From contig CAVQCT010000002.1 of the NCBI GenBank assembly GCA_963711085.1, positions 1,746,005-1,810,004 of the forward strand: a stretch of 64,000 nt of DNA. The letters are read 5' to 3'. Origin of the DNA: an uncultured candidate division Zixibacteria bacterium (GTDB lineage: Bacteria > Zixibacteria > MSB-5A5 > GN15 > FEB-12). A program made the translations under genes and the position numbers. Below the pieces are notes generated by a model. That model had not been told where the DNA came from and ran no database searches. It saw only the letters and a program-made list of their open reading frames with translations. Positions 4,460 to 30,740 of the stretch are shown piece after piece. How positions within the stretch are numbered: the first letter of the stretch is position 1; every line of letters starts with the position of its first letter.

Positions 4460-4599
4460 CCCTGAGCCTCTCAGTTATACAATAATATCTAAAATCGGCA
4501 CATTTTGGGTTTACTTTTGGGCATAAATATAGATTTGGTCGGTAGCACTGTAAAGCATAAAACAAAATATCAGTCAACGGGTTTCAACGGATTGCCGGA

Positions 4600-6234
4600 T
4601 TACATGGCCGGCGTGTAAATAAGCGACTTATTACGTCCAGTTTCCTTGGCTTTCAAGAGGGCCATATCGGCGGCAAAGATCAGCTTTTTGGGGTCATCGG
4701 CATGATGGGGGAAAATCGCTCCGCCAATTGAGACCGTGCAGTGCAGAGGTTTTTCGATTCCGTCAACCGCGAACTCTTCCCGGCCGATTCGGTTCTTGAG
4801 GCGCTCCATAAATCGGACACAGGTTTCTTCGTCCGCCTCCGGCATAATGGCACAAAATTCGTCCCCTCCGTAGCGGGCGACAATATCGATAGTCCGAATC
4901 GAGGTTTTCAGAATATCCCCCATCCTACTCAGGAGAGCGTCCCCGGCCAGGTGGCCGTAGGTGTCGTTGGTGCACTTGAGATCGTCGAGATCGAACATGA
5001 TGAGAGCAAGATTGCGCTGATACCGTCGGGCGCGACTGACTTCTTCATCGAGACGCTTGAAAAAGTAGCGCTGATTGGCAAGACCGGTGAGATTGTCGGT
5101 GTACGACATTTCTTCGATTACTTCGAACGATTCGGCGTTTTCGACCAGTTCGATTGCCGAACTCTGGAACGACTTGAGCTTCTCCACCACCTGGTTTGCC
5201 TCGCCTCCTCCTGCCCAGGCAATCAGCCCGGGGCGGTCCTCTCTGAGCGGAAACGAAGCGGTGAATTTGAGTCCTCGGTCGTTCACGTAATTTATCCATT
5301 CCCGGGTTTCGGATTGGCCCTGTACGATCGAGCCAATTTCGGTATACTCCCGCCCCTGAATTTGGTCGAGGATCTCTTTGAGGGCCGCTATCGATGGTCC
5401 GGGAATCGGACTGGTAATTCCGCGCTGGACGAGAACCGTACCGCCGTTGTCGAGACGCGTGGCATACAAATAGACCAGCCGGTCGGCTCCCATGATTTCC
5501 TTCAAGGCATCCACAATTCCGGGTACGACAGTTTCGGTTCGTCGGTTGCGTACCAGCCTGAGAATCTTACTGACCGATTCCTCGCGCTCGCCTGTTCTGA
5601 CCGGAGGGGTCTTCCTCTCCTCCATTGATGTCAACAGGGTCTCATATTTGGCTTCGTGCCATTTGATATGGTAGGCGGCGGAGAGAGATTGGGCCAGACT
5701 TGCCAGCAGGAACAGAAAGGCCGGCGATTCGGTACTTGCAGTGCTTCGCACGAAATATACACCGTAGAGATTCTCTCGCCAGAAGATCGGGATATAGATA
5801 TCCATTCCGAACCGGGACAGGCTCTCTTTCAGCTTGTTCGGCAGGAGCTCGGCCAGCTCCGAGGTCGGGTGCGGGAAGAAGTCTTCGCGAAGCCGGCTGG
5901 CGAAAGGCTCGCTGTAGCGCATTCTGAAATCGTTTCGCTGGAATCCGTTGATACCGTGATAATAGTTCAGTTCGAGCGTCCCGCGTTTCTTTCGCAGGAA
6001 AACGATCCGTTCACATCCGAACGATTCAATCAGCAGGCTCGACACCTTCCGGGCGACCTCGACAATCGACCCCTTCAGACTGTTGGTGAGGAGAAATTCT
6101 GAGAAGTCGTTCTGCCGCATATTGCGGAACGCTTCACTCATGCGGCGCTCACGCCTGATTCTCAACAGGAGCAGCGCACTGAGGAGCAGGACCAGTCCGA
6201 CAAGTACGATTATTAGAATTGATTGCACCGACAT
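4600..6234 (-). CDS. Membrane-anchored diguanylate cyclase (TM + GAF-like regions + GGDEF)
   Basis: 544 aa. N-terminal TM ILIIVLVGLVLLLSALLLL, active-site RYGGDEFCAIM, RxxD I-site (RTID) 5 residues upstream of GGDEF. Confidence 0.85.
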   Translation of the reverse strand: MSVQSILIIVLVGLVLLLSALLLLRIRRERRMSEAFRNMRQNDFSEFLLTNSLKGSIVEVARKVSSLLIESFGCERIVFLRKKRGTLELNYYHGINGFQRNDFRMRYSEPFASRLREDFFPHPTSELAELLPNKLKESLSRFGMDIYIPIFWRENLYGVYFVRSTASTESPAFLFLLASLAQSLSAAYHIKWHEAKYETLLTSMEERKTPPVRTGEREESVSKILRLVRNRRTETVVPGIVDALKEIMGADRLVYLYATRLDNGGTVLVQRGITSPIPGPSIAALKEILDQIQGREYTEIGSIVQGQSETREWINYVNDRGLKFTASFPLREDRPGLIAWAGGGEANQVVEKLKSFQSSAIELVENAESFEVIEEMSYTDNLTGLANQRYFFKRLDEEVSRARRYQRNLALIMFDLDDLKCTNDTYGHLAGDALLSRMGDILKTSIRTIDIVARYGGDEFCAIMPEADEETCVRFMERLKNRIGREEFAVDGIEKPLHCTVSIGGAIFPHHADDPKKLIFAADMALLKAKETGRNKSLIYTPAM

Positions 6235-6311
6235 GAGCGCACCGATTTTGATCGTTATTTGTCTATAATAAATATAGAGTCTTGCCCCGCAGAATCAACC
6301 TAAAAGCAAGG

Positions 6312-6548
6312 TCATCGTGCCCGAAAGAGGCGGAACCTGGACCGCCGCGTCAGCAATTTCTTACGTTTGAGCAGGAAAAACAGCTCCCACCAGCCGACTT
6401 GCAGGGCATCTGACCTTACGTTGATCTCCTGCTTCATTTCACCGATTGACGAAAATGGATCTTCCCGGATAAGCTTGAGAACAGCCGTTTCGAGATCATC
6501 CTGATTGGTGATCTCGTCGCTGGCGAAAGTCACGGTCTGAGTGGACAT
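6312..6548 (-). CDS. Hypothetical 78-aa protein between the STAS and GGDEF genes
   Basis: ORF only. Acidic N-half, basic C-tail (KRKKLLTRRSRFRLFRAR). No recognisable motif. Confidence 0.35.
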   Translation of the reverse strand: MSTQTVTFASDEITNQDDLETAVLKLIREDPFSSIGEMKQEINVRSDALQVGWWELFFLLKRKKLLTRRSRFRLFRAR

Positions 6549-6595
6549 CGTCCGGGGCCGCGCCCCCGTTTGAGCGTCTTGAACGGTGAGTTTTG

Positions 6596-6985
6596 TTACA
6601 TCCCGGACTTTTTTTTTCCGTCGTCGGCCGGTACCTGCCCGAAAGCATCACGCGCGTCGTCCACCGTCGGGAAGACCTTCAGCACGTTGTCAAACTCAAG
6701 CAGTTCATAGATTTCGTATACGTTCGGGACCATGCTGGCCAGCTTGATATCGCCGCCGTTTGAACGAACATCTTTGATATGCGATATGAAAATCCCCCAG
6801 CCGGCGGACGAAATATACTCGACCCCGGCGAGGTCAATGATCAGGCGATAGCGCTCTCTTTTCAAAAGGGAATCAATCACCTCTTCGAGTTCGCCAGCCG
6901 TCAGCGTATCGATCACGCCGTCGACCCGGATCTCGGAGATTTCGTTCCGGCTGCCTTCCTGAAGAGATATTGAAATATTGTCCAT
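6596..6985 (-). CDS. STAS-domain anti-sigma-factor antagonist (SpoIIAA/RsbV/HsbA-like)
   Basis: 129 aa. Canonical phospho-Ser context DLAGVEYISSAGWG. Confidence 0.85.
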   Translation of the reverse strand: MDNISISLQEGSRNEISEIRVDGVIDTLTAGELEEVIDSLLKRERYRLIIDLAGVEYISSAGWGIFISHIKDVRSNGGDIKLASMVPNVYEIYELLEFDNVLKVFPTVDDARDAFGQVPADDGKKKSGM

Positions 6986-7073
6986 AGTATAAACTTATAA
7001 TGCGACTCGTATGGAAGTTCTAATCAGCGGTAATAATGCGACACCGGTCGGTCCGGGGCAAGGAAAATCTTTC

Positions 7074-9116
7074 TTACTGCTGAGATGGCCGATCCGAGAC
7101 GTTCCTGACGTCAACTGACGGCTGTATCGATCGGGCCACTGGCTGCTGGTGGGCCACGGCGGAGTGGCAACGAGACAGAATGAAGGTAATATCGTCGTGA
7201 GCTTTGACGAATCCGGTGAAGTCGTCGATATCGGCCGTAATTCGTTTCGATATCTCGGCCACGCCGACCTGCTCATCTTCGGCCAGGATCCGTTCAAGCA
7301 GCTCTTTGAGTCGAGGCATTCCATATACCTGTCCGTCGCGATCCTTCGCCTCCGTGATACCATCGGTAAAGATAAAGAACAAGTCGTCATCTTCGAGCTG
7401 CATCGTCACTTCTTCGAGAATACGTTCGAACGAAGTTCCCTCGGTTTCCGGAAGACCCAGCGGCATTCCTTTCGGATTGACCTGAAGCATCGCCTTCCTG
7501 CCGGCCCGGTAGAACAGCATCGGATTGTGCCCGGCCGAGACGAAATTGATCGATCGCGAAGTAGCGTCGTAAATGACCAACAGGACGGTCACAAACATGC
7601 CCGGCGGAATGTTGTCTTTCAAATAGTGATGGACCTTGATGAGGGTATGGCGCGCCGACTGGGCATCGGCCGAATAGATCTGAATGACCGTCCGGAGCAT
7701 CGACATAACCAGCGACGCCGGAACACCCTTACCGGATACATCAGCGACCACCAGGCAGTATCGATCCTCAGAGACTTTGAACAGATCGTACAGATCCCCG
7801 CCGACAATCGACGCTGCACGATAGAAAGCATCGATTTCGAGGTGTGGTATGGCAGGGAGGTCGTTCGGAAGCAGCGTCTTTTGTATCTGCGAGGCTACTT
7901 CGATTTCCTTGGCCATCTTCTCGCGCTCGATGATATTTCTGCGGTCCTGCGACAGACGGGTCATCATCTGGTTGAACGCTTTGGAGATTTCGAAGAACTC
8001 CTCGGCGCCCTCCAGCGGCATCTCCGTTTCGAGATCGCCGGACGTGAACCTTCGAATGCGATTGGTAATCTTATGAATTGGATTGACGAAATAGTTCGAG
8101 AGCAGATAGATGCCGAGGATTCCGAACATGACCAGGATTACCGTCAGGATGAGAATCCGCTGGCGGGCCTCTCGCAGCTTGTTATAGATGGCGGCCGAGG
8201 AATAGGTCACATGAACTTCGCCCAGCAACTTCTCCCCTGTCATGATCGGCATGTTCAGGTACTGCATGTTCTCGTTTTCATAGCGGAGCGGCTGCGGGAC
8301 TCCCTCAATGCTCGGGCTGACACCCGGAGGATCTTCGTACGGTTTCCGGATATTGTGAATATCATCTGAGTGCGCCCGGATTATTCCCTGATCATCGGTC
8401 AGCACGATCAACTTGAGTTCCGGGTTGGCCCGGCGATAACTCACGATCAACTCGTCGAATTCCACGTCGGATCGACGGTTGATGAAGTACCCGGCGGCCT
8501 GATCGGCAATTGTCTTGGCCAGCGATTTGACCGTCTCGTCTTTGTGAACGTACATCTGGCGGGAAGTTTGAAAATCGAAGTAGTAGATGGAGCCGCCGAT
8601 GATAATCGACATGATGATAAAAGTCCAGACCGAGAATTTCACCCGCAAGGTGAACATACGGCGCAGGAGTGAACGGCTGACCGGCGCGGTGTCACCGATT
8701 CGCTTGATCATGCGGAGTTCGTTGAATCCGGCAGTCGAGATGTATTCCACCGAATCCATGATCTTCTGGATCATGTAGAACCCGAGCCCGCCTTTGCGTC
8801 CCGATTCCACCAGCCGCTGGAGATCGAACGTTCCGCTGCCGCCCGGCTGGAACGACCGTCCGAAATCGATCAGCGAGAAGATGACGAGCTTCTTGTAAAT
8901 GACTACCCTGAGCCGGATAATTCCTTTTTCGTAGAGGTAGGCATGGCGGATGATATTGGTCGCCCCTTCTTCGATCGCCAGCATGACCGCGGCAATCTCC
9001 TTTTTGGACATGGAGGCGGCGATGCAGCTTTCCCGGACCGTGCGCTGGATGCCGTCGAGGTACTTTTCCTCGGCGATAAACTCGGCATTGATCTCTTTTA
9101 TGGGGCGGCGAAACAT
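7074..9116 (-). CDS. Fusion protein: RsbW/SpoIIAB-type Ser kinase + 2 TM sensor + HAMP + SpoIIE/PP2C phosphatase
   Basis: 680 aa. N-box EEGATNIIRHAY and GGLGFYMIQ at the N-terminus. TM helices at FSVWTFIIMSIIIGGSIYYF and LILTVILVMFGILGIYLLSNYF. HAMP region. PP2C motifs GGDLYD, VVADVSGKGVPASL, FTDGITEA. Confidence 0.8.
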   Translation of the reverse strand: MFRRPIKEINAEFIAEEKYLDGIQRTVRESCIAASMSKKEIAAVMLAIEEGATNIIRHAYLYEKGIIRLRVVIYKKLVIFSLIDFGRSFQPGGSGTFDLQRLVESGRKGGLGFYMIQKIMDSVEYISTAGFNELRMIKRIGDTAPVSRSLLRRMFTLRVKFSVWTFIIMSIIIGGSIYYFDFQTSRQMYVHKDETVKSLAKTIADQAAGYFINRRSDVEFDELIVSYRRANPELKLIVLTDDQGIIRAHSDDIHNIRKPYEDPPGVSPSIEGVPQPLRYENENMQYLNMPIMTGEKLLGEVHVTYSSAAIYNKLREARQRILILTVILVMFGILGIYLLSNYFVNPIHKITNRIRRFTSGDLETEMPLEGAEEFFEISKAFNQMMTRLSQDRRNIIEREKMAKEIEVASQIQKTLLPNDLPAIPHLEIDAFYRAASIVGGDLYDLFKVSEDRYCLVVADVSGKGVPASLVMSMLRTVIQIYSADAQSARHTLIKVHHYLKDNIPPGMFVTVLLVIYDATSRSINFVSAGHNPMLFYRAGRKAMLQVNPKGMPLGLPETEGTSFERILEEVTMQLEDDDLFFIFTDGITEAKDRDGQVYGMPRLKELLERILAEDEQVGVAEISKRITADIDDFTGFVKAHDDITFILSRCHSAVAHQQPVARSIQPSVDVRNVSDRPSQQ

Positions 9117-9175
9117 AGGTGCAACGTAGTAAAGAGTGAATGGTTCGTCTATTTAAAAAAGCCCGCCGGGCGAGT

Positions 9176-11005
9176 CTATTTCGACTGTTCGGATTTCAGG
9201 CGGAGTTTGGCTTGCTCGATATTGTTGAGCGTATTGATATTATTCGGGTACGCTTTCAACACCTGGTTCCAGGAATCGATCGCCTTCTGGTACTCATGGT
9301 TGCGCATGTACCGGAGCCCGTCGAGATAAAGCGCCCAGATATCCTTGTCCTGCTGCAGATCCTCGAGCGTGGTCGTCTTCTCCTCCGTGACGGCTATCCG
9401 TTTAAGATAGTCGAGCGCGACCGGATTGTTGCTGTCGACTGAAAGGACGGCCGAGAAGGTCGCCTTGGATTTGTCGTACAGTTCGTTGTTGTACTGCTCG
9501 ATTCCCTTGTTGATCTGCTGGGCGATATCGAGGTTCTTGGCAACCTTGCCGCGCAAGGCGAGCACTTCGGCATTCCCCGGATCGAGATCCAGAATCCGGT
9601 TATAGGCCTCGATCGCACTGATGTAATTCCCCTGTTTCTCGGCCTGTCTGGCGGTTTCCATCTCGACCGCGATATCCTTGGACATCGCATCGTCGATCTG
9701 CCGCTTCAGCTCGTTGGCCGCTTCGTGATTCGGGTTGATATCGAAAATCAGGTCAAGCATGTCGAGAGCCGCGCGATAGTATTTCTTGGCGAAGAAGTTC
9801 TCGGCCTGGGCAAGATACGCCTGGACTGATTTGTCGAGTTCGCGCTGCGCTTCTTCGATTCGTCTCTGTTCTTCCTGCTGGAAGTTGATCGAATTTTCGA
9901 TCGCCGCTATCGTCCCGATAATCTCAGCGTCGTGCTCCTTGAACGCCAGGGCCCGCTGATAGTAGGCCAGGGCGGAATCGAGCCGGAAGCGGTTGTAGAA
10001 TTCGTCCGCCTTGTCTTTGTAGAACTCGAACTGCTTGCGTCGCTCGTCTTCGAGCAATATAGATCCTTTCGCCTGCTCGGCCTTCTCCCGTTCCGCCAGC
10101 TGCTGATCGATCGATTTGCCGAGAAGGAAAGAAACCGAGAAGCGATGACTGTCTTCGATATAGCTGAGCATTTTGTAGGCGTAATCAAACCTGAAGCGTT
10201 CGAGCTGAACACCGGCCCCGAACGAGAGATTATCCCGGTCGTACCCGGCCCGCAACATGTAATTGTTGTACAAGGTGAATTCTACACCGGTGTGCACCTC
10301 GACCTCCTTGTTCTCGATCTTCTCCAGATCGAACGAGGCTGCCAGCCGGTCCGTTTTCGAAAGAGCCAGATCATGAACTGCCATTCCGCCGACGATCGAA
10401 ATGGGCGAAGTTTCCGATGAATTCTTGAGCGTTAACTCTGGCGGGACAAGATTCCTGAAGAGGAGACCGAAACTGACCTTCTTGCGGATATGAGCCATCA
10501 TGCCGATGTCGAATCCGAATCCGTAGTCGGAGAGATTATCGAGCGACTGATTTACGATCTTGAAACTCAGACCGGCGGAGACGCTTCCCTGAAGATTCTT
10601 ACCGTACGCCAGAATGACCTCGGAGTTGGAATAGCCGAACGTCCCCTCGTCGGTATAGTCGTTTCTTCGTACAATGTCATTCGTACCGATGCGCATGTAC
10701 CCGATGCCGATGCCGCCAAGTTTAAGATCGGGATAGACCCATCCGCCATAGTCAAAGATCGAGCCTTCGAACAGAGTCATATGCATGGCGGAAAATTCCT
10801 GCCACTGCAGCGAGGCCAGGCCGGCAGGATTGTAGTAGATCGCGCTGGCGTCGTTCGCCAGGGAGGTAAACCCGCCTCCCATACCGAGCGCCCGGGCGCC
10901 CACACCGACGGAGAAGGGTGTTTCCTGCCCAGCCTGATTGACGGCAGAAACCGACACCGTCAGACAGCCGAACAGCAGGGCCAAAAGAAATGCGCGCGTC
11001 TTCAT
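9176..11005 (-). CDS. Outer-membrane FadL/PorV-like beta-barrel fused to C-terminal TPR domain
   Basis: 609 aa. Signal peptide MKTRAFLLALLFGCLTVSVSA, FadL/PorV-type N-terminal signature ARALGMGGGFTSLANDASAIYYNPAGLA, alternating beta-strand pattern to about residue 300, then TPR repeats. Start overlaps the upstream stop (ATGA). Confidence 0.65.
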   Translation of the reverse strand: MKTRAFLLALLFGCLTVSVSAVNQAGQETPFSVGVGARALGMGGGFTSLANDASAIYYNPAGLASLQWQEFSAMHMTLFEGSIFDYGGWVYPDLKLGGIGIGYMRIGTNDIVRRNDYTDEGTFGYSNSEVILAYGKNLQGSVSAGLSFKIVNQSLDNLSDYGFGFDIGMMAHIRKKVSFGLLFRNLVPPELTLKNSSETSPISIVGGMAVHDLALSKTDRLAASFDLEKIENKEVEVHTGVEFTLYNNYMLRAGYDRDNLSFGAGVQLERFRFDYAYKMLSYIEDSHRFSVSFLLGKSIDQQLAEREKAEQAKGSILLEDERRKQFEFYKDKADEFYNRFRLDSALAYYQRALAFKEHDAEIIGTIAAIENSINFQQEEQRRIEEAQRELDKSVQAYLAQAENFFAKKYYRAALDMLDLIFDINPNHEAANELKRQIDDAMSKDIAVEMETARQAEKQGNYISAIEAYNRILDLDPGNAEVLALRGKVAKNLDIAQQINKGIEQYNNELYDKSKATFSAVLSVDSNNPVALDYLKRIAVTEEKTTTLEDLQQDKDIWALYLDGLRYMRNHEYQKAIDSWNQVLKAYPNNINTLNNIEQAKLRLKSEQSK

Positions 11006-14000
11006 TTGACCACCGCCAGTTTTAGACGAGCATGCTCATCGGTCGCAGCATCCCGTATAGACACGATATACACGCCGTTGAAGACCATGATGCCGTCATC
11101 GTTTCGACCATCCCAGTAGATGAAGTTCTCTCCGGATCGTCCGCCTTCACCGCCTGCGGTATAGTCTTTTGCGTAGACCATCTCCCCGGTAAGGGTAAAG
11201 ACGCGGAATTCGACCCTGGCATCGGCCGGCAACTCATAGCTAAATTCAAGGGGAGATTGGATCGGATCAGTTGGGTCAAACGGATTGCTCCTAACAAGGA
11301 ACGACGACTCTAGGCTCGCCCCTTTGATAGCCAGCGACTCATCCATGATCGAACTGCCCGGCTGATCGGATGTTATTACCGGCGCCTGGCCGGCGTTCGG
11401 TCCGGCTATGAACACGGCTTGAATCTGGTCCTTGGCCAGCTCCAGATTCAGCGTTTCCACTTTCGTGTCCTTCAGCTCGGCGACAAAATTCAAGGTTCTG
11501 GTCACACCGGCATCCAATTGGAAATGGTCGAAGGTAAAGACCAGCCGGTTATCACTGGCGGTGGTCATGGCGACTTTTATGCCGTTTTCGAAAAAGCCGG
11601 TGTTGCCGATATTGATCACACTGCGGACATCGACAGGTACACCTTTGCCGTCGCGTGCCAGGATTTCTATTGTGTTTATCAGGAGATCGGCAAGCGGCGA
11701 AGCGCCGCTGTTCGTCAGCTCGAGATCGAAGATCTTCTGGCTCCGGCCGGGAAGGATAAGGCTCGAACCTACCTGAGTGGCATTCACCACCAGCTGGCCC
11801 TCGGAGGAGATCACTCGAACTATGACCGTAAACGTAGTGTCGCCGATCCTGGCCCGGCCACCGAGATTTGCGTCGTTCGGAATACCTGTCAAAGCAAAAG
11901 CAAGGGTAATGGTCGTGTCAAAGCTCGGGGAAGCAAACGAAAAGCTTAGCGGCTTGTCCGCTGAAATGGTCCCGGTTGTGGTATCCGGTTTTATCCGATC
12001 AAAACCGCCTGCGATCATGCGGTAAGTTCCATCGGTAACATCGGCTTGTCCACTGTTTGACAGCACGACACTCAACTGGAAAGCGGTGTTGAAATCTACC
12101 ACCGATGAACTTGCTCCCAGGAGGCTGTACGAGAGGCTCAGATTGGCCGGCGTCTCGATCGTGATGAAGGCGATATTGTCTATAGGTGGAGCCTGGCCGA
12201 CGTCGGAAGAGATGATCTCCGCTCGGAAGACTTCTGCCTGTACCGATACATTGGCCGCCTGGATAGCAAAGAGCACTTCGGAAGTGTCATGGGCTCCTAT
12301 GTCATGAACAACCAGATCAGATTGGAAAATCGAACCGCCGTCGGACGTCAGGCGCACGATAACCGAATCGATCGGAGTCGAAGACGTGTTTGCGACCCGG
12401 CAAGACAACTGGAAGTTTTGCGACGTATTCACCCGGGGGGCATTTGGAGCTACGACGTCCAGGCTGAGTATTTGCGCCACCGGATGCTCCACGACATGGA
12501 TCGGGAAGCCCACCGTGTCAAATGGAACATAGTACAAAAGGGTGTCGGGAATTCCCGGAACGCAATAGTGGACCGAAGCGGCGGTGGAGAGATTATTCCC
12601 GGCTTGATTCTCCGGAATGAAGACGCTGATGCTCGTCAGCGTGTTAGTGCCGGGAATAAAGGTGTCATCGGGACTCTGGAAGAGGGTTGAAATATTGAAT
12701 GCGTCTCCTGAAAGCCGAAAATCAGTGTTCATCGGGCAATAGCTCAGCGGAACGGTGCTCTGCAGATCCAGATCAAAACTGAATGCGCTATTAGTTCCGG
12801 CGAAGACGGTCGACGGACCGAAACTTCCGCTCACATACGAGAAACTCACCGCGGGAATGACTACAATTGAATCGGGGTATTCGTTTTCAAGCGTAAACAG
12901 ATTACCGGAGCTGATTATGTGATAAGTCACCTTGACGAAATAGGTCGTCGGCGCCGCCAGTGTATCGTCGGTGTAAACAACGGGAAGGTCGCGATAGCTT
13001 ATAGTACCCGACCCGATCGAGGAGTAAGTCGGGGATCCGTCGAAAAGCGTGGCGAATGGCGTACCGCCGGAGTCAGGGGCAAGCTGAACCGACAGATGGA
13101 CGCTGTCTATCGACCCTTCGAAACCTTCTTCGAGAATATCCAGCGAAAGATTGAAACCATGTCCGGAGAGTATGGTGTCCGGCTTGAGAGAACCGTTGGC
13201 AACGCTCAAGACCGCTGGTCCGGTTACCACGATCGGGAGCGCAAGCGTATCGGCAACAGAGTAAGCCAGTCCATCGGCGGTGAAATGCGATGATAGCACA
13301 AAGACGAGGGTGTCGCTCGCCGGATAGGTCACGTGAACGGGAAGCTGCAGGGGGAGTGAGTCGACCTGACCTGAAGCGCTGCCGGTAAAACTTGTCTGAA
13401 CTGCTCCTCCTTCGCCGGATCTGAATCGGGCGGAAAGCGTCACCGGGGCATCGGGCTCCAGATTGCCGTTATTTTGTACCGGGACGGTGACGGAAATGTT
13501 GTGACCCGCGACAACGCTGGTAACTGTGCGTCCGGTAAGATCCAGGGCATCGTCAATATCGTAGCCGTTGAAGTGGACGGTAATCGTGTTTGAGTTTAAG
13601 CTGCCATTGGTGGCGTAGATTTGAGCCGCCGAAGTAGCGCCGAGATAGCGGACATTGGCCGACAGCACTCTCACAACTCCACCGATCTGCAAACTGTTGC
13701 TGCTGAGAATACTCGGCACCAGTTGCCCGTCGCTTGAAACCAACGTGATCGGGTTAGCCGCGAGATCGTAATCCTTCTTGAGGTTGTTGTAATGGTCATA
13801 CAGAATGATCGAAGCTGCGGAGCGAAGGACTTTGCCCACAAACTGGGTGTCGGCGACATTCAGCACCATCCGCTCCAGGTCGCCGGCTACAACCGTTATC
13901 TGGCCGGACCTTCCGGAGACGGCCCCTGATATCGCAACGACAACACCGGTACCGGCACGCGTCACAGTCAGCACCGAGTCGTTGAATATCCCGATGCAGT

Positions 14001-14709
14001 TGGTACAGGCTTCGAGTGTCCAGCCGAAAGTCAGGCCGGGAATCGGATTGCCGAATTCGTCATACCCGACAGCACTGAAAGTGATATTGCTGCCCGCTTT
14101 GACCGTGGTGTCATTGTGGGGTATCACGACAATCGAATCAAGAGCGGCCGGGTTTATCGCAAAAGCCAGCGAGAAACCAGGGTTGGGCCGCCCCGCTAAT
14201 TCAGGTTGAGGCTCTACCTCGACCGCGTAGCTGCCGGCTCTTTTCGGATTGATAATACCCGGGAGCTCAAACGATCCTTGTATCCGGTCCGGGTTCGTTG
14301 AGCCGGAACTTTGTGAGGCCGCGATTGCAACCGCAGTGAGTCTAAAATCAATCGATCGGTCTGCCGGGTTGATCTGGTCGATCGTACAGTCTGGGGAGCC
14401 TGACGCTCCGCTTGAATTCTGCGCACTTAGTTTCGAGAGGTCAAACCCTTCCGGCAGAATCAGACGGTAGACACTGCGAGTGTCGGGGACGCTGTCGGCC
14501 CGGATACTGTAAGTAATTTTCAGGCTGGTTTCTTGGCCGGCCACCCTGGAAAGCAGAGCGCAATTCAGGTCTTGAGGCGATGTGGAGTGAGGCTGATCGA
14601 TATCTTCCCGCGAAGCAGTGGTAATTTGCTCCGAAATCGGCTGGGACAGGACAGCGACAGGCAGGAGGAGTGCGAGTGTCAGAAGAAGAGCGTATTTACC
14701 CATTTGCAT
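11002..14709 (-). CDS. Large secreted adhesin-like protein (Big_2/CARDB-like repeats) with T9SS/FlgD-Ig-type C-terminal domain
   Basis: Track ORF runs to 14763. The likely start is MQMGKYALLLTLALLLPVAVLSQ (signal peptide) at 14709. Big_2-like ITFSAVGYDEFGNPIPG. CTD: SNPFDPT...VEFRVFTLTGEMV...YWDGRNDDG...GVYIVSIRD...KLAVVK. Confidence 0.75.
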   Translation of the reverse strand: MQMGKYALLLTLALLLPVAVLSQPISEQITTASREDIDQPHSTSPQDLNCALLSRVAGQETSLKITYSIRADSVPDTRSVYRLILPEGFDLSKLSAQNSSGASGSPDCTIDQINPADRSIDFRLTAVAIAASQSSGSTNPDRIQGSFELPGIINPKRAGSYAVEVEPQPELAGRPNPGFSLAFAINPAALDSIVVIPHNDTTVKAGSNITFSAVGYDEFGNPIPGLTFGWTLEACTNCIGIFNDSVLTVTRAGTGVVVAISGAVSGRSGQITVVAGDLERMVLNVADTQFVGKVLRSAASIILYDHYNNLKKDYDLAANPITLVSSDGQLVPSILSSNSLQIGGVVRVLSANVRYLGATSAAQIYATNGSLNSNTITVHFNGYDIDDALDLTGRTVTSVVAGHNISVTVPVQNNGNLEPDAPVTLSARFRSGEGGAVQTSFTGSASGQVDSLPLQLPVHVTYPASDTLVFVLSSHFTADGLAYSVADTLALPIVVTGPAVLSVANGSLKPDTILSGHGFNLSLDILEEGFEGSIDSVHLSVQLAPDSGGTPFATLFDGSPTYSSIGSGTISYRDLPVVYTDDTLAAPTTYFVKVTYHIISSGNLFTLENEYPDSIVVIPAVSFSYVSGSFGPSTVFAGTNSAFSFDLDLQSTVPLSYCPMNTDFRLSGDAFNISTLFQSPDDTFIPGTNTLTSISVFIPENQAGNNLSTAASVHYCVPGIPDTLLYYVPFDTVGFPIHVVEHPVAQILSLDVVAPNAPRVNTSQNFQLSCRVANTSSTPIDSVIVRLTSDGGSIFQSDLVVHDIGAHDTSEVLFAIQAANVSVQAEVFRAEIISSDVGQAPPIDNIAFITIETPANLSLSYSLLGASSSVVDFNTAFQLSVVLSNSGQADVTDGTYRMIAGGFDRIKPDTTTGTISADKPLSFSFASPSFDTTITLAFALTGIPNDANLGGRARIGDTTFTVIVRVISSEGQLVVNATQVGSSLILPGRSQKIFDLELTNSGASPLADLLINTIEILARDGKGVPVDVRSVINIGNTGFFENGIKVAMTTASDNRLVFTFDHFQLDAGVTRTLNFVAELKDTKVETLNLELAKDQIQAVFIAGPNAGQAPVITSDQPGSSIMDESLAIKGASLESSFLVRSNPFDPTDPIQSPLEFSYELPADARVEFRVFTLTGEMVYAKDYTAGGEGGRSGENFIYWDGRNDDGIMVFNGVYIVSIRDAATDEHARLKLAVVK

Positions 14710-15002
14710 CGATAGCGCGCCTACTATTTTTACCGTACGGAGTTTGATCAACAGATAGTACATAATATCTCAGCAAAGTCTATGCCTCAGAGGGCTTTGG
14801 ACGGCATTTTGCGCCGGAATAAATATCCTCCTTCGGACGAGATATCCACATCGGTAACCAATTAACACGCAAGTATTTAGGAAGTCAGGCAGGTCCCTCG
14901 TTGTCCATCACGTCAGAGACGCAAGCGAATAAGGCGAGAAGAGAAGCGATCGATATGTAAACAGTTGCACTTATGAACTAGCCGTTTGCAGTCAACAAGC
15001 TG

Positions 15003-15896
15003 TCAGCAAATCTTAGCTGAGGCAATGTTCTCGGCGGCAACAACGGTATTGGTCATAAGCATGGCGATTGTCATCGGTCCAACACCGCCCGGAACAGGGG
15101 TAATATACGAAGAAATTTCGGCGCATGCATCAAAATCAACGTCGCCGACCAGTCGGTACCCTTTCTCAGTCGAACTGTCTTCGACCCGGTTCACTCCGAC
15201 ATCGATGATAACTACACCTGGTCTTATCATATCGGCGGTAATGGTGTTGGGTCGACCGATGGCGGCGATGAGAATGTCGGCGCGACGAGTGATCTCGGGG
15301 AGGTTGCGGGAGCGGGAATGGGCCACCGTCACGGTGGCATTGGCATTCTTGGCCTTCTGAATGAGCATGGCGGCAACAGGTTTTCCAACTATGTTTGAGC
15401 GGCCAACGACAACGACTTCTTTCCCTTCGGTCGAGATCTGGTAATGTTCCAGAAGTTTGATAACACCATGCGGCGTACACGGAAGTAGACCGCCTCTTCC
15501 CAGCAGCATCATCCCAACGTTGTACGGGTGGAATCCGTCGACATCCTTTTCCGGATTTATTGTCAACGTCACCGCCAGTTCGTCCATATGCGGCGGAAGC
15601 GGTGATTGAACCAGGATGCCGTGAATTCGTTTGTCTTGATTGAGTCGCTGGACAATCTGCTCCAACTCTTTCTGAGGAATTGATGCATCTTTACGGATCA
15701 CCTCGGAATACATGCCGAGCTTATCGCAGGCTTTCGCCTTGCTCGATACATACGACTCCGACGCCGGATCATCGCCTACCAGGACCGTAGCCAGTCCCGG
15801 GGTTACTCCCCGTTCTTTGAGGGCTTCAATCCGGCTCTTGAGTCCGGTGCGAATCGCTTTGGCTACTTCTTTTCCGTCAATAAGTTGCGCTGCCAT
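15003..15896 (-). CDS. folD: Bifunctional methylene-THF dehydrogenase/methenyl-THF cyclohydrolase
   Basis: 297 aa. MAAQLIDGK start, GLATVLVGDDPAS, VVVGRSNIVGKP, PVPGGVGPMT. Confidence 0.95.
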   Translation of the reverse strand: MAAQLIDGKEVAKAIRTGLKSRIEALKERGVTPGLATVLVGDDPASESYVSSKAKACDKLGMYSEVIRKDASIPQKELEQIVQRLNQDKRIHGILVQSPLPPHMDELAVTLTINPEKDVDGFHPYNVGMMLLGRGGLLPCTPHGVIKLLEHYQISTEGKEVVVVGRSNIVGKPVAAMLIQKAKNANATVTVAHSRSRNLPEITRRADILIAAIGRPNTITADMIRPGVVIIDVGVNRVEDSSTEKGYRLVGDVDFDACAEISSYITPVPGGVGPMTIAMLMTNTVVAAENIASAKIC

Positions 15897-15904
15897 ATCT
15901 AAGC

Positions 15905-16738
15905 CTAAGCTTCATTATCTCCATCAGGACCGTTTCCCTGTACGGTGGAGATATCGAAGTTCTCACGAAACCGTTCGATGAGGAGTGCCTCGCCGTTGGA
16001 AGAATCGATCTTCACCACCACGCCCGAGATCTTGACGTCTTCGGACGCAGTCGAGAATCGAATCGGCAATCCAGTGAGAAATCGATCGACAGAAGGACGA
16101 ATCTGCATGCCGATGACCGATTCATGCGGGCCGGTCATCCCGGCATCGCTCAGATAAGCTGTCCCTCGCCGACTGATTGTCTCATCGGCCGTCTGCACAT
16201 GGGTGTGGGTGCCGATTATAGCTGAGACCGTTCCATCCAGAAAGTACCACATGGCCTGTTTTTCCGAGGTAGCCTCGGCATGGAAATCCACGAAGATGAT
16301 CTCTGTCTGCTCCCGCAAAGCTGCGACCTCACGTTCGGCCGTCCGGAAAGGGCAATCAATGTCTTTCATGTAGGTCCGGCCCATGAGATTCAGCACACCG
16401 ACCTTCACGCCGCCGACGGTATCGACGTAGGATCCGGTGCCCGGCACTCCTCGAGGGAAATTGGCCGGCCGGAGCAGACGGGGCTTTTCTTCGAAATACT
16501 TCAGAATATCCATCCGGTCCCAGATATGGTTGCCGGAGGTCTGCATGTCGACGCCGTAGCTGAAGAATTTGCGGGACATTTCAGGTGTGACCCCGAATCC
16601 ACCGGCGGCGTTCTCGACATTGGCGATCACGTAGTCGATCTCGTAGCGTTCCCGGAGCGGTTTGATCATGTGAGCAGCCGCCTGACGACCGGCCTTACCG
16701 CAAATGTCGGCGACAAAGAGAATATTAAACGATGACAT
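15905..16738 (-). CDS. ymdB: YmdB-family metallophosphoesterase (2',3'-cyclic-nucleotide phosphodiesterase)
   Basis: 277 aa. ILFVADICGKAGR, NVENAAGGFG, SGNHIWD, DFHAEATSEK. Lies downstream of rny as in Bacillus. Confidence 0.85.
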   Translation of the reverse strand: MSSFNILFVADICGKAGRQAAAHMIKPLRERYEIDYVIANVENAAGGFGVTPEMSRKFFSYGVDMQTSGNHIWDRMDILKYFEEKPRLLRPANFPRGVPGTGSYVDTVGGVKVGVLNLMGRTYMKDIDCPFRTAEREVAALREQTEIIFVDFHAEATSEKQAMWYFLDGTVSAIIGTHTHVQTADETISRRGTAYLSDAGMTGPHESVIGMQIRPSVDRFLTGLPIRFSTASEDVKISGVVVKIDSSNGEALLIERFRENFDISTVQGNGPDGDNEA

Positions 16739-16809
16739 CAGAAACAGTCTTTCTAAGCAGGGACGGCAGCGCCGTCCCTACGGAATCTATGTGATACAAA
16801 ACGAGCAGG

Positions 16810-18375
16810 CTACTTGGCGTATTCGGTTGCCCGTGTTTCCCGGATGACCGTCACCTTGATCTGACCGGGATACTGCATTTCTTTTTCGATTTTTTCGGCG
16901 ATATCGGTCGCCAGGATAGTTGTGCCGAGATCATCGAGATTTTCGTTTTCAACGATCACTCTAATCTCGCGCCCGGCCTGAATGGCGTAGGCCTTAGCGA
17001 CTCCCTTGAAACTGTCTGCCAGTTCTTCGAGCTGCTGCAGACGTTTCACGTAAGCCTCGAGCGGCTCGCGGCGGGCACCCGGACGGGCACCTGAGATCGC
17101 ATCGGCTGCTTGTACCAGCACCGGGTACGGACTGTTCATGGGAACATCACCATGATGCGATTCGATCGCGTTAATGACGTAGTCGCTTTCCTTAAAGCGA
17201 CGCATGAAGTCAGCGCCGATTTGTGTATGTGTCCCTTCGGTTTCACGGTCAATTGCCTTGCCGATATCATGAAGCAGACCGCATCGCTTGGCCACCTGAG
17301 CATCGAGTTCCAGCTCAGCCGCCATCAGGCCGCAGAGCATCGCCACTTCTTTTGAATGGGCCAGGACATTCTGACCGTACGAGGTACGGAAATTCAGTTT
17401 GCCCATCTGGTAGATAATCTCCGGATGCAGCCCGTGAATTCCGAGCTCGAAACAGGCCTGCTCGCCCGCTTCGCGCACGATCACTTCCATCTCCTTCTGG
17501 GCTTTTTCTACGACCTCTTCGATTCTGGTCGGGTGAATCCGTCCGTCGGCGATCAGCTTCTCGAGCGCCATACGGGCGATTTCACGGCGGACCGGGTCAT
17601 AGCCCGAAAGAATGACAGCCTCAGGGGTGTCGTCGACAATCACGTCGATTCCAGTGGCCGTTTCGAACGATCTGATATTGCGCCCTTCGCGACCGATGAT
17701 TCTCCCCTTCATTTCATCCGACGGGAGGTTGACCACGGACACGGTCGATTCGACCGTATGGTCGGCGGCACAGCGGTAGATAGCGGAGAGGATAATCTCT
17801 TTGACTTCCTTCTCAGCGTCTTGTTCCGCCTTCTCTTTAATCTCTTTTATGTGCGCGGCAGCCTCAGCCTTGGCGGCGTGAATCATGTTGTCCATCAGTT
17901 GCCGCTTGGCTTCCTCGGGGGTCATCTGTGCGATTTTCTGCAGCTTGTCGTTTTGAGCATCGATTATGTGGGTGAGTTCGTTCTCCCTCAGCTCGATTCC
18001 TTTTTCGCGGGCCAGCAGGTTCTTCTCACGGGTGGAAAATTCTTTGTCCCGGACTTCGAGAAAGTCGAGTTTCTTTTGAAGTCCTGCCTGCTGAGTGTCA
18101 AGCCGTTTCTCGAGATCCTCGAGCTGACGCCGCTTCTTCTCCGACTCGGTCTCGAACTCCGCTTTGAGTTTCAGCCACTCTTCGCGCGCTTCAAGGACCG
18201 CCTCTTTCTTCCGGATCTTGGCTTCATTTTCAGCTTCGTTAATTATCTTCTTCGCTGCGGCCTCGGCTTCGCTCAGTTTCGACGCGTTGGCCCGACGCGC
18301 GAGATAACCGAACAACAGGAACGAGGCAACACCCACAACCGCGGCGACCGCAACTAGGATTATGGTGTCAGTCAT
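16810..18375 (-). CDS. rny: Ribonuclease Y
   Basis: 521 aa. N-terminal TM, coiled coil, KH ([15 protein letters not shown]), HD (LLHDIGKA). Confidence 0.95.
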
Positions 18376-25980: not shown

Positions 25981-26082
25981 GGCTTATTTTCGGTCGTTTA
26001 CGGGGTAAAAGAGGTTGCGTTAGAATAAGTTAAAGTGACCGGAGAGGGCTGCCGGAGATGTCCGAATACAACAGGAAACGGC

Positions 26083-27299: not shown

Positions 27300-27383
27300 C
27301 TTTCATGAGCGCACCTTTCTTCCTTCCGATGTAAGGCACAAACGGCGCGGATTACCATCCAATTTCCGCGGCCCGTTGATCTG

Positions 27384-27845: not shown

Positions 27846-27857
27846 CTATCACCCTCG

Positions 27858-30724: not shown

Positions 30725-30740
30725 CTTGTTGTAGCATCTA

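Follow-up and report, generated by a model that had tools for sequence, protein, structure and literature searches.

Gene order and conservation of the locus

The window analysed here, a 64-kb stretch of DNA whose host genome belongs to the Zixibacteria, carries four minus-strand ORFs where a preliminary description of this DNA had placed them, within the order PorV/TPR – (RsbW-type kinase–TM–sCache–TM–HAMP–PP2C) – STAS – 'orf78' – TM/GGDEF cyclase – Wza. In a synteny survey of 80 species-level genomes, all of them metagenome assemblies and some with closed chromosomes, this overall order was kept phylum-wide (59–66 of 62–70 species-level genomes): PorV/TPR was in place in 68/68, the STAS gene directly followed the sensor gene in 66/70 (4/70 carry other genes downstream of the sensor), the HTH ORF was in place in 63/67, the GGDEF cyclase gene lay downstream in 59/62 and Wza was in place in 53/57. 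Pfam and NCBIfam matches confirm that all of the domains claimed beforehand are real and, together with the content of the cluster, bear out the proposal of a phospho-switch of kinase, PP2C and STAS with no sigma factor nearby; neither a sigma nor a free anti-sigma gene was found in the conserved 19-kb cluster of the 80 genomes. Judged from gene content and order, a predicted partner-switch-type serine phospho-relay is a core feature of Zixibacteria.

The module had also been said to lie between EPS-export and adhesin genes. The first part stands, with Wza, Wzz and a BY-kinase present downstream; the adhesin label is unverified, because one upstream gene encodes a PorV/PorQ-family and TPR protein and the product of the other, 1253 aa long, has no family assignment.

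A bifunctional membrane sensor

The sensor gene (7074..9116, minus strand, like all features of the module given below) encodes a predicted bifunctional membrane protein of 680 aa (Pfam, NCBIfam) which comprises, from the N to the C terminus, an RsbW-type Ser kinase, TM1, a periplasmic sCache domain, TM2, HAMP and a PP2C (SpoIIE) phosphatase. The HATPase_c_2 (RsbW/SpoIIAB-type) Ser kinase domain, sought within residues 1–140, was matched at aa 15–138 (8703..9074; Pfam E 6.8e-18); among solved structures, RsbW is the closest relative (6M36_A, E 3.5e-7), and N-box residues E49/E50..N54, D84xG86 and G109-G-L-G-F are invariant in the orthologue alignment. A hydrophobicity scan places TM1 at aa 155–180 (8577..8654) and TM2 at aa 316–345 (8082..8171), hydrophobic segments that enclose a predicted periplasmic domain of ~135 aa. 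Here a single-Cache-like sensor domain (aa ~190–318, 8163..8549) scores 26.4 bits against sCache_3_2, slightly less than the gathering threshold, which orthologues and paralogues surpass (34–45 bits in paralogues P0249 and P0254). A HAMP domain (aa 338–389, 7950..8105; Pfam E 3.4e-10) and a PP2C/SpoIIE phosphatase domain (aa 450–650, 7167..7769; Pfam E 3e-42) follow, the latter with metal-binding residues D441, D459, D585 and D641/D642 invariant in the orthologue alignment and with Rv1364c, RssB and SiaA (6K4E) as closest solved relatives. The predicted catalytic residues of both the kinase and the PP2C domain are intact. No characterised member has this exact layout, as had been supposed, but the architecture is not unique: it is common to >120 clusters at ≥60% identity, and the full 1–650 layout is shared, at 27–45% identity, by ~95 of the best 150 clusters (50% identity clustering).

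The STAS protein and the invariant A-run

The product of the zero-frame ORF at 6596..6985 (129 aa, the short isoform of our proposal) consists of a single STAS domain (PF01740, E 4.5e-19; TIGR00377 above cut-off), and its fold model superposes on SpoIIAA (1TH8_B) with a TM-score of 0.88. Ser60 (codon 6806..6808), the predicted phospho-acceptor, aligns in HMMER with two phosphorylated serines, Ser58 of SpoIIAA and that of TM1442, and the motif Y-[IV]-S-S-A-G-W-G that includes it is invariant in 67/67 orthologues.

Near the end of this ORF lies an A9 homopolymer (6609..6617; zero-frame GGA AAA AAA AAG, encoding KKK), the sole A9 run within the window and the proposed recoding site, in the context of which a slippery heptamer A_AAA_AAG occupies 6608..6614. 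From this run onward the -1 frame is open (6312..6608), continuing through a linker (VRDVTKLTVQD...) into an HTH-like domain, and the ORF of 78 aa that is listed as a separate gene (6312..6548) is the 3' part of that continuation. An A9–A11 run is present at the STAS–HTH junction in all ~66–67 related loci, and the two frames always meet there: the HTH is fused in frame with STAS in 23 genomes, lies in the -1 frame relative to STAS in 40, including the window, and is shifted by +1 in 4. The fused gene lies in the same gene context as the split loci, and the conceptual 224-aa shifted product of the window aligns over residues 1–224, at 60% identity, with the fused protein P0157. STAS and HTH are also coupled in paralogue P0261, a fusion of the sensor, an HTH and three STAS domains that carry the same YISSAGWG motif.

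The evidence that the small domain is HTH-like is weak but convergent. Three helices are predicted (AF2), followed by a basic tail, RRSRFR; the best Pfam match has an E of 5e-4, and hhalign gives a probability of 59%. A fold search with the HTH returned no match below E 0.8, and a comparison of the domain with PDB sequences returned none.

The '78-aa orphan' as a predicted part of the STAS gene

The simplest description of the split arrangement would be two conventional, independently translated genes, one for STAS and one for a 78-aa HTH protein starting from ATG 6548, with the A-run serving as a Lys-rich tail and the fusions being secondary. A separate ORF with an ATG is indeed called in the window and close relatives (P0121–P0123), and a 47-nt gap separates the ORFs. 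Against this, ATG, GTG and TTG are all absent upstream of the HTH core in at least 10 split loci, and the conserved linker motif precedes any start codon in 32/43. Moreover, the linker evolves as coding sequence in the HTH frame: across ~43 codons, that frame contains 0 stops in every split locus (43/43; ~3 in either alternative frame) and carries the linker motif in 28/43 (other frames, 0/43), and the codon-position entropies of 1.15/0.68/1.77 bits (positions 1/2/3) show a substitution pattern biased to the third position. The uninterrupted run in 67/67 loci also goes beyond codon usage, given that 52% of Lys codons are AAA and that A9 occurs in only 2/27 other KKK triplets. We find the two-gene account scarcely credible. 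On these sequence comparisons, the '78-aa orphan' of the preliminary description is not an independent gene; natural fusions and the conserved slippery A-run assign 6312..6548 to the STAS gene, as the predicted 3' part of a STAS–linker–HTH frame displaced by -1 at the A9 run.

A frame break located always and exactly at a 9–11-base homopolymer, a classic site of indel errors, raises the question of an assembly or sequencing artefact, such that the true gene would be an in-frame STAS–HTH everywhere and miscalls would have split ~2/3 of the assemblies, including the window, where one extra A would restore the NNA-A9-G pattern of fused loci. This would require miscalls of one and the same gene in 43/66 genomes from many projects, closed chromosomes included, with 39 loci needing +1 and 4 needing -1, yet sister genomes agree with each other. 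Errors would not make stops, and a zero-frame stop lies ≤9 codons past the run in 43/43 split loci. The junction accounts for 65/73 A/T runs of ≥9 in 1.285 Mb; with just 8 other long A/T runs present, nothing suggests that homopolymer noise is widespread. We therefore regard an artefact as very improbable.

Proposed programmed slippage and possible phase variation

Since the A-run is invariant at the frame junction and the linker is stop-free, often start-less and coding in its substitution pattern, the comparison indicates that programmed slippage at the run may give both STAS and STAS–HTH isoforms. A runs of ≥9 allow efficient transcriptional slippage, for example in Thermus dnaX and mxiE (PMC1088944, PMC3711429). 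A stimulatory RNA structure 3' of the run was not found (mean z ~0), nor was an Rfam element at the recoding site, and a classical hairpin-stimulated -1 frameshift is for these reasons unsupported.

Alternatively, the A-run may be a contingency locus, at which replication slippage toggles the population between fused (HTH on) and split (HTH off) alleles, the assemblies reporting the majority allele, and neither RNA polymerase nor the ribosome slips in a programmed way. DNA polymerase also slips on poly-A/T tracts (PMC1088944, PMC3711429), runs of 9, 10 and 11 are all represented, the tree requires at least about 11 changes between the fused and split states, and toggling would also hold an out-of-frame HTH under selection. 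Homopolymers being hypermutable in DNA, phase variation or neutral toggling would account for these changes just as well. However, close relatives are alike in state and run length (window/L001/L002, L019/L020, L040/L041/L051, L062/L063), so that switching is not fast at that scale, and a survey found that phase variation typically affects proteins exposed at the surface, not cytoplasmic regulators (PMC3711429). Furthermore, prompt stops in both off-frames (66/66 and 51/66 loci) suggest that selection acts on the short product as well; an off-frame stop ≤9 codons past the run is found in 66/66 loci, versus a background of 35%. Considering both sides, we judge phase variation as the whole explanation to be unlikely. 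Phase variation and programmed slippage can co-exist.

The diguanylate cyclase and possible targets of the switch

The cyclase gene (4600..6234; 544 aa; Pfam, NCBIfam) encodes a predicted membrane-anchored protein with a TM helix (6148..6234), a weak GAF-like module (about 5674..6063; E 0.0047, 5/53 members), a module without assignment and a GGDEF domain (4627..5103; E 1.5e-44). As described beforehand, both the GGDEF motif (residues 456–460, 4855..4869) and, five residues before it, the I-site RxxD (residues 447–450, 4885..4896) are present, and each is ≥95% conserved among 60 orthologues; the protein is thus an active-looking, I-site-bearing cyclase. No STAS–GGDEF fusion was seen, and conserved adjacency is the one observation by which STAS and cyclase would be linked.

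Alternatively, the kinase domain or the STAS protein may act, as in a classical sigma-factor partner switch or an HsbA-like FlgM switch, on a sigma or anti-sigma factor encoded elsewhere, for example the FlgM-like ORF at 26967..27299, with the cyclase independent. RsbW/RsbV and SpoIIAB/SpoIIAA are the nearest matches of the kinase and STAS domains, FlgM is a binding partner of HsbA in P. aeruginosa (PMC5085249), and a large flagellar cluster is present in the window. In addition, the cyclase gene is apparently transcribed from a promoter of its own: a consensus scan gave a sigma-70-like candidate, TTGATT-N16-TATATT (6271..6298, minus strand, a pattern match), and the intergenic regions upstream of the cyclase contain GTTGACA in 29/61, TCTATATT in 14/61 and CTATATT in 18/61 cases. 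Weighing against such a target are the lack of sigma and anti-sigma genes in the conserved cluster noted above, a kinase that is membrane-tethered and fused to an opposing phosphatase as in SypE (PMC10120452), and the HTH domain as the conserved fusion partner of STAS. The FlgM-like ORF itself matches Pfam under the cut-off (E 6e-4) and has no NCBIfam match, and nothing ties this weak candidate, 20 kb off, to the module, so that its earlier nomination as a target is unsupported. We consider this alternative improbable. The FlgM-like ORF sits at the edge of a genuine flagellar cluster.

Relationship to known systems and a proposed mechanism

A partner-switch-type module adjoining a cyclase was proposed in the preliminary description, as an HsbR/HsbA/HsbD-like switch. 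The adjoining phospho-switch stands; the closest designs are those of SypE/SypA and SiaA. In SypE of Vibrio fischeri, encoded in a polysaccharide locus, an N-terminal kinase, a central input and a C-terminal PP2C domain are arranged in the same order as in the Zixibacteria sensor, and the STAS protein SypA is the downstream effector (PMC10120452). SiaA, whose input is of the TM-HAMP-PP2C type, controls a cyclase via a phospho-switch protein (PMC8457831, PMC7647112); SiaC/SiaD and HsbA/HsbD are STAS-type switches on cyclases (PMC8457831, PMC5085249). The predicted STAS–HTH output resembles CapK/CapS, CapS being a STAS-wHTH repressor under STAS phosphorylation control (PMC13373217). By our analysis of design, SypE/SypA, SiaABCD and CapK/CapS, and not HsbR/A/D alone, are the characterised systems nearest to the module, and the STAS–HTH fusions and slippery run point to a CapS-like output, besides or instead of cyclase control.

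We suggest that a periplasmic signal passes via HAMP and tilts the phosphatase/kinase balance, which would set the phosphorylation of Ser60, as SypE does on SypA and SiaA/SiaB on SiaC. Slippage on the A-run, most likely by RNA polymerase and, as a second possible route, by ribosomes that slip by -1 or slide at A_AAA_AAG, would yield two isoforms in every species, STAS (~129 aa) and STAS–linker–HTH (~224 aa), and the genomic frame (0, -1 or +1 by species; -1 in the window) would decide the default isoform. The long isoform may act as a phosphorylation-controlled, CapS-like DNA-binding regulator, and the short or either isoform may target another protein, for which the adjoining membrane-anchored GGDEF cyclase is the best candidate, a step modelled on SiaC–SiaD and HsbA–HsbD. 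Together, the two outputs would make c-di-GMP and the expression of neighbouring EPS-export and surface-protein genes responsive to an envelope signal, one gene probably providing two regulators of surface-polysaccharide/biofilm behaviour. To this proposal as a whole, i.e. a partner-switch relay, a recoded STAS/STAS–HTH gene and c-di-GMP/EPS coupling, we assign a probability of about 0.6.

Finally, pattern matches on the minus strand suggest further signals at the borders of the module. A consensus scan gave a sigma-70-like promoter candidate for the Wza/EPS-export operon, TTTACA-N17-TATATT (4526..4554), after which a conserved TGCCGATTT leader element is found (4492..4500). In the PorV/TPR–sensor intergenic region, which is T-rich in many loci, a terminator-like GC hairpin with a T-run lies at 9162..9174.

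The STAS gene and its downstream frame

The four ORFs named in the preliminary description are confirmed on the minus strand (4600..9116 of the window) and comprise a membrane sensor (7074..9116), a STAS protein (6596..6985), a 78-aa ORF (orf78; 6312..6548) and a GGDEF cyclase (4600..6234). The third of these, for which neither Pfam nor NCBIfam holds a family match, had been taken for an orphan; instead it belongs to an apparently recoded STAS–HTH gene, 23 of 66 genomes having STAS and orf78 as one ORF of 223–236 aa (here called fused; in split loci the HTH frame lies at −1 or +1). The neighbours of the fused gene are the same as those of the split gene, and a neighbour-joining tree built from sensor sequences implies at least about 11 changes between the fused and split states.

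The STAS gene of the window ends in GGA AAA AAA AAG TCC GGG ATG TAA, in which the A9 (6609..6617, minus strand) is the sole A9 within the 64-kb window. From this A-run the −1 frame is open into orf78 and reads KKK-VRDVTKLTVQD…, the counterpart of the linker KKK-DREVTRLTVxD in proteins that are fused by nature; upstream of the ATG at 6548 this frame encodes LTVQDAQTGARPR and VRDVTK. The conceptual product has 224 aa, the same for a −1 ribosomal shift or a transcript with +1 A, and its residues 1–224 align across the junction with residues 1–225 of the fused homologue P0157 (60 % identity).

A census of frame registers at 66 loci and the window placed the HTH frame in frame 0 (fused) at 23 loci (A10 in 22, A11 in one), at −1 in 39 loci and the window (A9 in 12, window included, A10 in 26, A11 in one) and at +1 in four loci (A9 in two, A10 in two). 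Both the uninterrupted A9–A11 run at the STAS/HTH junction and an HTH frame open back to that run are found in 67/67. Within the 1.285 Mb of fetched loci, 65 of the 73 A/T runs of at least nine are this junction run, while lysine codons of the neighbouring genes are 52 % AAA and 48 % AAG, and other KKK triplets are written as A9 in only 2/27. By these codon-usage and census controls the A-run is conserved beyond coding need. The other A/T runs of this length in the fetched loci lie at L017:14304, L030:4053 and 12696, L044:18230, L063:2696, L066:12041, L071:13647 and L080:12778.

The downstream frame itself carries the marks of a translated sequence. Over the ~43 codons between A-run and HTH core, the HTH frame has no stop in 43/43 split loci, against means of 3.0 and 2.8 stops in the other two frames; at least 10 split loci have no ATG, GTG or TTG before the HTH core, and in 32/43 the conserved linker motif lies 5′ of the first possible start. 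The HTH frame contains T-x-[LV]-[TSR]-[VIL] in 28/43 split loci, the other two frames in 0/43. In split loci the nucleotide entropy of the HTH frame is 1.15 bits at codon position 1, 0.68 at position 2 and 1.77 at position 3, a pattern that holds also outside the anchoring motif. To judge from these comparisons, the downstream frame is stop-free, often without a start of its own and probably under protein-level selection, and in-frame orthologues exist.

The frame adjacent to the HTH frame stops within nine codons of the A-run in 66/66 loci (background 35 %), and the third frame within 10 codons in 51/66 (background 38 %). These off-frame stops bear on two other accounts of the split gene, DNA-level phase variation, in which the run itself would change length in the genome, and assembly error, in which the split would be an artefact of the run. 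Both stay in play as rivals, but less strongly in view of the agreement among sister genomes and the engineered look of the off-frame stops.

Candidate mechanisms at the A-run

The zero frame of the −1 loci reads A_AAA_AAG or A_AAA_AAA, both of which are classical −1 heptamers (PMC3711429), and this would suit programmed −1 ribosomal frameshifting (PRF). Hairpin-stimulated −1 PRF is nevertheless rejected as the main mechanism, given that the 70 nt 3′ of the A-run, scanned for stimulatory RNA structure, had a mean z of ~0 in every frame class and that an Rfam search gave no family match. An upstream SD-like motif is present in only 11/39 loci.

We favour transcriptional slippage, because four loci need a +1 change, which is beyond −1 PRF, and because the fused loci retain a perfect A10 without needing any shift. 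Runs of at least nine A are an established substrate for RNA-polymerase slippage: the A9 of Thermus dnaX yields ~50 % of the alternative product, and the longer product of Shigella mxiE requires slippage (PMC1088944). Poly-A is also a tract on which ribosomes slide (PMC4363877). Only transcriptional slippage, possibly with ribosomal help, accounts for all three frame registers.

The STAS A-run shares with Thermus thermophilus dnaX (A9), Shigella mxiE, E. coli dnaX and IS3-family orfAB a homopolymer of at least nine or A_AAA_AAG at the frame junction, a short and a long product from one locus (proposed here from the sequence) and a downstream part that lies in different frames by species (PMC1088944, PMC3711429). 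Unlike PRF genes with a stimulatory hairpin, none was found downstream of it.

We suggest that comparison across genomes gives this signalling gene a clean signature of programmed slippage. The slippage hypothesis is directly testable, since the orthologues represent all three frame registers, and, if confirmed, it would add a cellular, non-IS, non-dnaX case of utilized A-run slippage. To our knowledge, A-run slippage has not been described for any STAS or anti-sigma-antagonist gene, and we found no description of slippage or recoding at an A-run of such a gene in the literature searched. In present annotation the gene is split, with its second half ‘hypothetical’, in two thirds of genomes.

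The HTH-like domain

The orf78 family has the conserved core DPFxSIxE…(G/S)WWxvFxiLrkxxLLxRRSRFRxaR. A word-index search with orf78 alone found only three near-identical proteins, the fused relatives being reached through the STAS search. In the AlphaFold2 model of one of these, P0176, the STAS domain (pLDDT 80–93) is followed by a disordered linker of ~40 aa and a three-helix C-terminal module (pLDDT 84–90), and the 78-aa protein of the window, modelled alone, forms three helices as in that module.

Foldseek with the 78-aa model gave nothing significant (no match at E <0.8); the top matches, insignificant as they are, were almost all winged-HTH or HTH DNA-binding domains (FapR, Lrp/AsnC, Fur, MecI/BlaI, PadR, the Pax paired domain and SETMAR). 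Weak Pfam matches to HTH_Tnp_Tc3_2 occur in 16 of 32 family members (best E 5e-4), and hhalign aligns the domain over 57 columns with the second helical module after PP2C in the sensor paralogues P0249, P0254 and P0261 (E 9e-5, probability 59 %). A profile of the domain matched none of the PDB sequences. We call the domain ‘HTH-like’ with low to moderate confidence, a tentative label because the PDB profile search was empty and no fold matched at E <0.8. We show that STAS is physically linked to this HTH-like domain, and the gene fusions thereby name a STAS-domain partner, a small HTH-like module.

The sensor and the predicted STAS phospho-acceptor

The 680-aa sensor (7074..9116, minus strand) has the Pfam domain order kinase–TM–sCache–TM–HAMP–PP2C. 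The kinase expected at its N-terminus was found as HATPase_c_2 (PF13581; residues 15–138, E 6.8e-18), followed by sCache_3_2 (residues 190–318; 26.4 bits, just under the gathering score), HAMP (residues 338–389) and SpoIIE/PP2C (PF07228; residues 450–650, E 3e-42). From the hydrophobic segments at 155–180 and 316–345 it follows that the Cache-like domain would be extracellular and both enzymatic domains intracellular. In an alignment of 14 diverse orthologues the kinase residues (N-box E49/E50..N54, D84xG86 and G109-GLGF) and the metal-binding residues of PP2C (D441, D459, D585 and D641/D642) are invariant. The best PDB match of the kinase domain is RsbW (6M36), and those of the PP2C part include SiaA (6K4E).

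The substrate candidate (6596..6985, minus strand) is a single STAS domain (PF01740, E 4.5e-19; TIGR00377 above cut-off), the Ser60 of which aligns with SpoIIAA Ser58 (HMMER). The motif Y-[IV]-S-S-A-G-W-G does not vary among the sequences compared (67/67), and the conservation of the predicted phospho-acceptor, which the preliminary description had singled out as decisive, likewise holds in 67/67. The closest solved structures of the kinase and STAS domains are RsbW, SpoIIAA and TM1442. We show that, as far as sequence can tell, kinase, phosphatase and STAS acceptor are all intact.

Orthologues of the sensor comprise more than 120 cluster representatives at ≥60 % identity (Zixibacteria/GN15 where named), all with the same four domains. 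A HMMER search of 1.84 billion representatives recovered the full layout (residues 1 to ~650) in ~95 of the best 150 clusters at 27–45 % identity, these distant clusters having in common the N-terminal kinase, two TM segments, sensor, HAMP and PP2C; the architecture is a family rather than a singleton. Of ten distant full-architecture relatives looked at, the one that bears an organism name is again from Zixibacteria and therefore a paralogue. Many distant relatives are 800–2250 aa long, with C-terminal extensions of three kinds: HTH_28/HTH_23 domains directly C-terminal to PP2C (P0249, P0254); an HTH and then three STAS domains bearing the YISSAGWG signature, as in the Zixibacteria STAS (P0261); and long TPR arrays, in proteins of up to 2253 aa (P0257, P0271, P0293, P0339). 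Proteins of ~500 aa that match sensor residues 150–647 are SiaA-like forms without the kinase.

Gene order and the cyclase

Conservation of the neighbourhood, another point on which the preliminary description was prepared to stand or fall, was assessed by tblastn with the window proteins against one genome per species (80 loci), with presence counted only at loci with sufficient flanking DNA. The order RNase Y–YmdB–FolD–large surface protein–PorV/TPR–sensor–STAS–orf78–GGDEF–Wza–(Wzz)–TPR–BY-kinase is kept: PorV/TPR lies upstream of the sensor in 68/68, and downstream of it STAS is present in 66/70, orf78 in 63/67, GGDEF in 59/62 and Wza in 53/57. At L004, L009, L050 and L080 synteny breaks immediately 3′ of the sensor gene, where unrelated ORFs are found. 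We thus show strict synteny of the module with exopolysaccharide (EPS) export genes. Neither the conserved neighbours nor the scanned ORFs of the window include a sigma factor, in line with the original reading of the operon.

In the window the module is followed by Wza (Poly_export/SLBB), Wzz/GNVR, a TPR protein and a BY-kinase ATPase. Upstream of it lie a protein of 1253 aa and a PorV/PorQ-family barrel to which TPR repeats are fused. The flanks had been described as EPS export and adhesin genes, of which the former stands through Wza, Wzz and BY-kinase and the latter is a putative label, the 1253-aa ‘adhesin’ matching neither a T9SS sorting domain nor any other family in NCBIfam.

The cyclase (4600..6234) combines a TM helix at its N-terminus with a GGDEF domain (E 1.5e-44), with the GGDEF motif at residues 456–460 and the I-site RxxD at 447–450. 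Among 60 orthologues, conservation is at least 95 % for the motif and for both I-site residues, Arg and Asp, and we regard the protein as an active-looking cyclase with an I-site. The 340-aa stretch between the TM helix and GGDEF is poorly conserved; the N-terminal region has only a weak GAF match, in 5 of 53 members (Pfam), and its profile found no relative in the PDB.

Two side observations concern the genes upstream. The 1253-aa protein, encoded within 9176..14763 (minus strand), is secreted-looking, with a weak FlgD_ig-like C-terminus and a 4-nt gene overlap with PorV/PorQ-TPR; the pair lies upstream of the sensor in 68/68 genomes and may represent a T9SS-like cargo and its outer-membrane partner. 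Further, RNase Y, YmdB and FolD (15003..18375, minus strand) occur in the same order directly upstream of the surface-protein/sensor cluster phylum-wide (L001–L080), an unusually stable junction of housekeeping and envelope genes.

Relation to known partner switches

Partner switches that act on non-sigma targets (SypA, SiaC, HsbA, CapS and All4160) are an active topic, with several targets unknown. The locus described here is a phylum-wide, strictly syntenic non-sigma switch in uncultivated Zixibacteria, the sensor of which merges the SypE and SiaA designs. With SypE/SypA of Vibrio fischeri it shares an N-terminal RsbW-like Ser kinase, a central input and a C-terminal PP2C in one polypeptide (PMC10120452), a single-domain STAS with a conserved Ser as the (here presumed) substrate, and a place in a polysaccharide/biofilm locus (Wza, Wzz and BY-kinase downstream here, and at locus L081 also a polysaccharide deacetylase). 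The STAS protein SypA is a downstream effector of unknown target, and no sigma factor is involved (PMC10120452, PMC4517449). The input is TM–sCache–TM–HAMP in Zixibacteria, whereas SypE has a cytoplasmic, phosphorelay-controlled REC; SypA has neither an HTH extension nor a slippery run, and an adjacent cyclase is not described for SypE/SypA. Orthology between SypE/SypA and the Zixibacteria module was not detected.

The C-terminal two thirds of the sensor have the layout of SiaA from Pseudomonas aeruginosa, a TM–HAMP–PP2C sensor phosphatase opposed by the kinase SiaB (PMC8457831, PMC7647112). Unphosphorylated SiaC activates the adjacent GGDEF cyclase SiaD (PMC8457831), and aggregation and biofilm depend on SiaABCD (PMC8457831, PMC7647112). 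The best partial NCBIfam match of the PP2C part is SiaA (NF038263), at 68 bits against a cut-off of 700, so that the sensor is not a SiaA equivalog, and that of the GGDEF part is SiaD (NF038266; 141.7 bits against a cut-off of 290, GGDEF domain only). Unlike SiaA/SiaB, the Zixibacteria kinase and phosphatase form one polypeptide; a canonical PF01740 STAS with Ser takes the place of SiaC, which is phosphorylated on Thr68; the cyclase N-terminus is a TM helix and a weak GAF-like module rather than the SiaC-binding helical stalk of SiaD; and an HTH isoform is proposed here.

Likeness to HsbR/HsbA/HsbD, the model originally put forward, stands in that a partner switch adjoins a cyclase, and HsbR likewise holds kinase and PP2C in one protein (PMC5085249). 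Which partners HsbA binds, a GGDEF cyclase among them, depends on its phospho-state, phospho-HsbA binding HsbD (PMC5085249). HsbR is, however, a soluble, HptB-fed REC–PP2C–kinase, whereas the Zixibacteria sensor lacks REC, has a transmembrane input and carries its domains in reverse order; we regard HsbR/HsbA/HsbD as one of several comparators and not the closest. HsbA also binds FlgM, to which no link was found here.

CapS is a STAS–wHTH repressor in which phosphorylation of the STAS Ser by an anti-sigma-type kinase breaks both the dimer and DNA binding (PMC13373217). The Zixibacteria gene would be CapS-like in placing STAS before a putative HTH in one polypeptide, with 23 natural fusions, a frame-shifted continuation in 43 loci and a weakly supported HTH fold. 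We treat CapS as an analogue and not a relative because neither sequence nor fold searches retrieved it. CapK is a soluble, ssDNA-activated HTH–STAS–GHKL protein, and CapK/CapS have no dedicated PP2C; unlike in CapS, a disordered ~40-aa linker and a slippery run separate STAS from HTH in Zixibacteria, and the context is EPS and c-di-GMP rather than anti-phage immune operons.

The three catalytic or substrate domain families are those of RsbU/RsbV/RsbW and SpoIIE/SpoIIAA/SpoIIAB, from which the module differs in that kinase and phosphatase are fused and membrane-anchored and no sigma factor target was found. In Anabaena, partner switches are reported to act directly on EPS synthesis (bioRxiv 10.64898/2026.04.08.717354). 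What is new is the combination of a SypE/SiaA-type sensor, a CapS-type STAS–HTH and proposed dnaX/mxiE-type slippage.

Possible function

By analogy, the sensor would set the phospho-state of Ser60, as SypE does for SypA Ser56 and SiaA/SiaB for SiaC (PMC10120452, PMC4517449, PMC7647112); the long isoform would work like CapS (PMC13373217), and the neighbouring cyclase may be a target of the short isoform or of both (cf. SiaC–SiaD and phospho-HsbA–HsbD). We suggest, with a probability of roughly three in ten, that slippage at the A9–A11 run yields both free STAS, acting on protein partners such as the cyclase, and STAS–HTH, acting on DNA, and that the encoded frame tunes the ratio of the isoforms. 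With free STAS on proteins and STAS–HTH on DNA, a single periplasmic signal, sensed by the fused kinase/phosphatase protein, would govern both c-di-GMP synthesis and surface-polysaccharide transcription. Were this so, the gene would be the first recoded component of a partner switch and a new way of branching such a pathway, one phospho-switch leading to a protein-binding and a DNA-binding output. The literature searched makes no mention of c-di-GMP signalling in Zixibacteria.

Recurrent sigma-70-like patterns (GTTGACA or CTTTACA, then TCTATATT) precede the cyclase gene and the Wza operon. The Wza leader also contains TGCCGATTT(TA) at 4492..4500 (minus strand), an element of the GGDEF–Wza intergenic region in 29–35 of 59 genomes, which lies downstream of the recurrent promoter-like pair CTTTACA…TCTATATT and could be an operator or leader element; the −10-like box TCTATATT also precedes the cyclase gene. 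Both the promoter-like patterns and TGCCGATTT are candidate targets of the HTH isoform. Against shuffles, scans for sigma-70 promoters (12 vs 7.6±2.9) and terminators (17 vs 12±3.9) showed no enrichment, and we list such sites only because the k-mers recur across genomes.

Motility genes in the window

FlgM (26967..27299) had been put forward as a second target of the STAS protein, a proposal for which we find no support: the ORF has a sub-threshold Pfam FlgM match and no NCBIfam match, and lies 20 kb from the module with nothing connecting them. It sits at the end of a large flagellar/motility cluster (26000..57300, minus strand) and overlaps by 4 nt the gene of an HDOD-domain protein (26083..26970, minus strand; E 1.4e-64). 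HDOD proteins are often tied to motility and c-di-GMP circuits.

The cluster includes FliD (28321..30648) and flagellin-like genes (30741..32915 and 38135..40057), all on the minus strand, and further FliW, FlgK, FlgN, an FlgJ-like protein, FlgI, FliI, FliH, FliG, FliF and MotA/MotB. Two genes for TPR–glycosyltransferase proteins (33211..35919 and 35916..37574, minus strand) sit between the flagellin genes, which suggests flagellin glycosylation. Adjoining the motility genes (57451..63164, minus strand) are a sigma-54-dependent response regulator (REC–AAA–HTH_8), a PAS histidine kinase and a CheA-like kinase.
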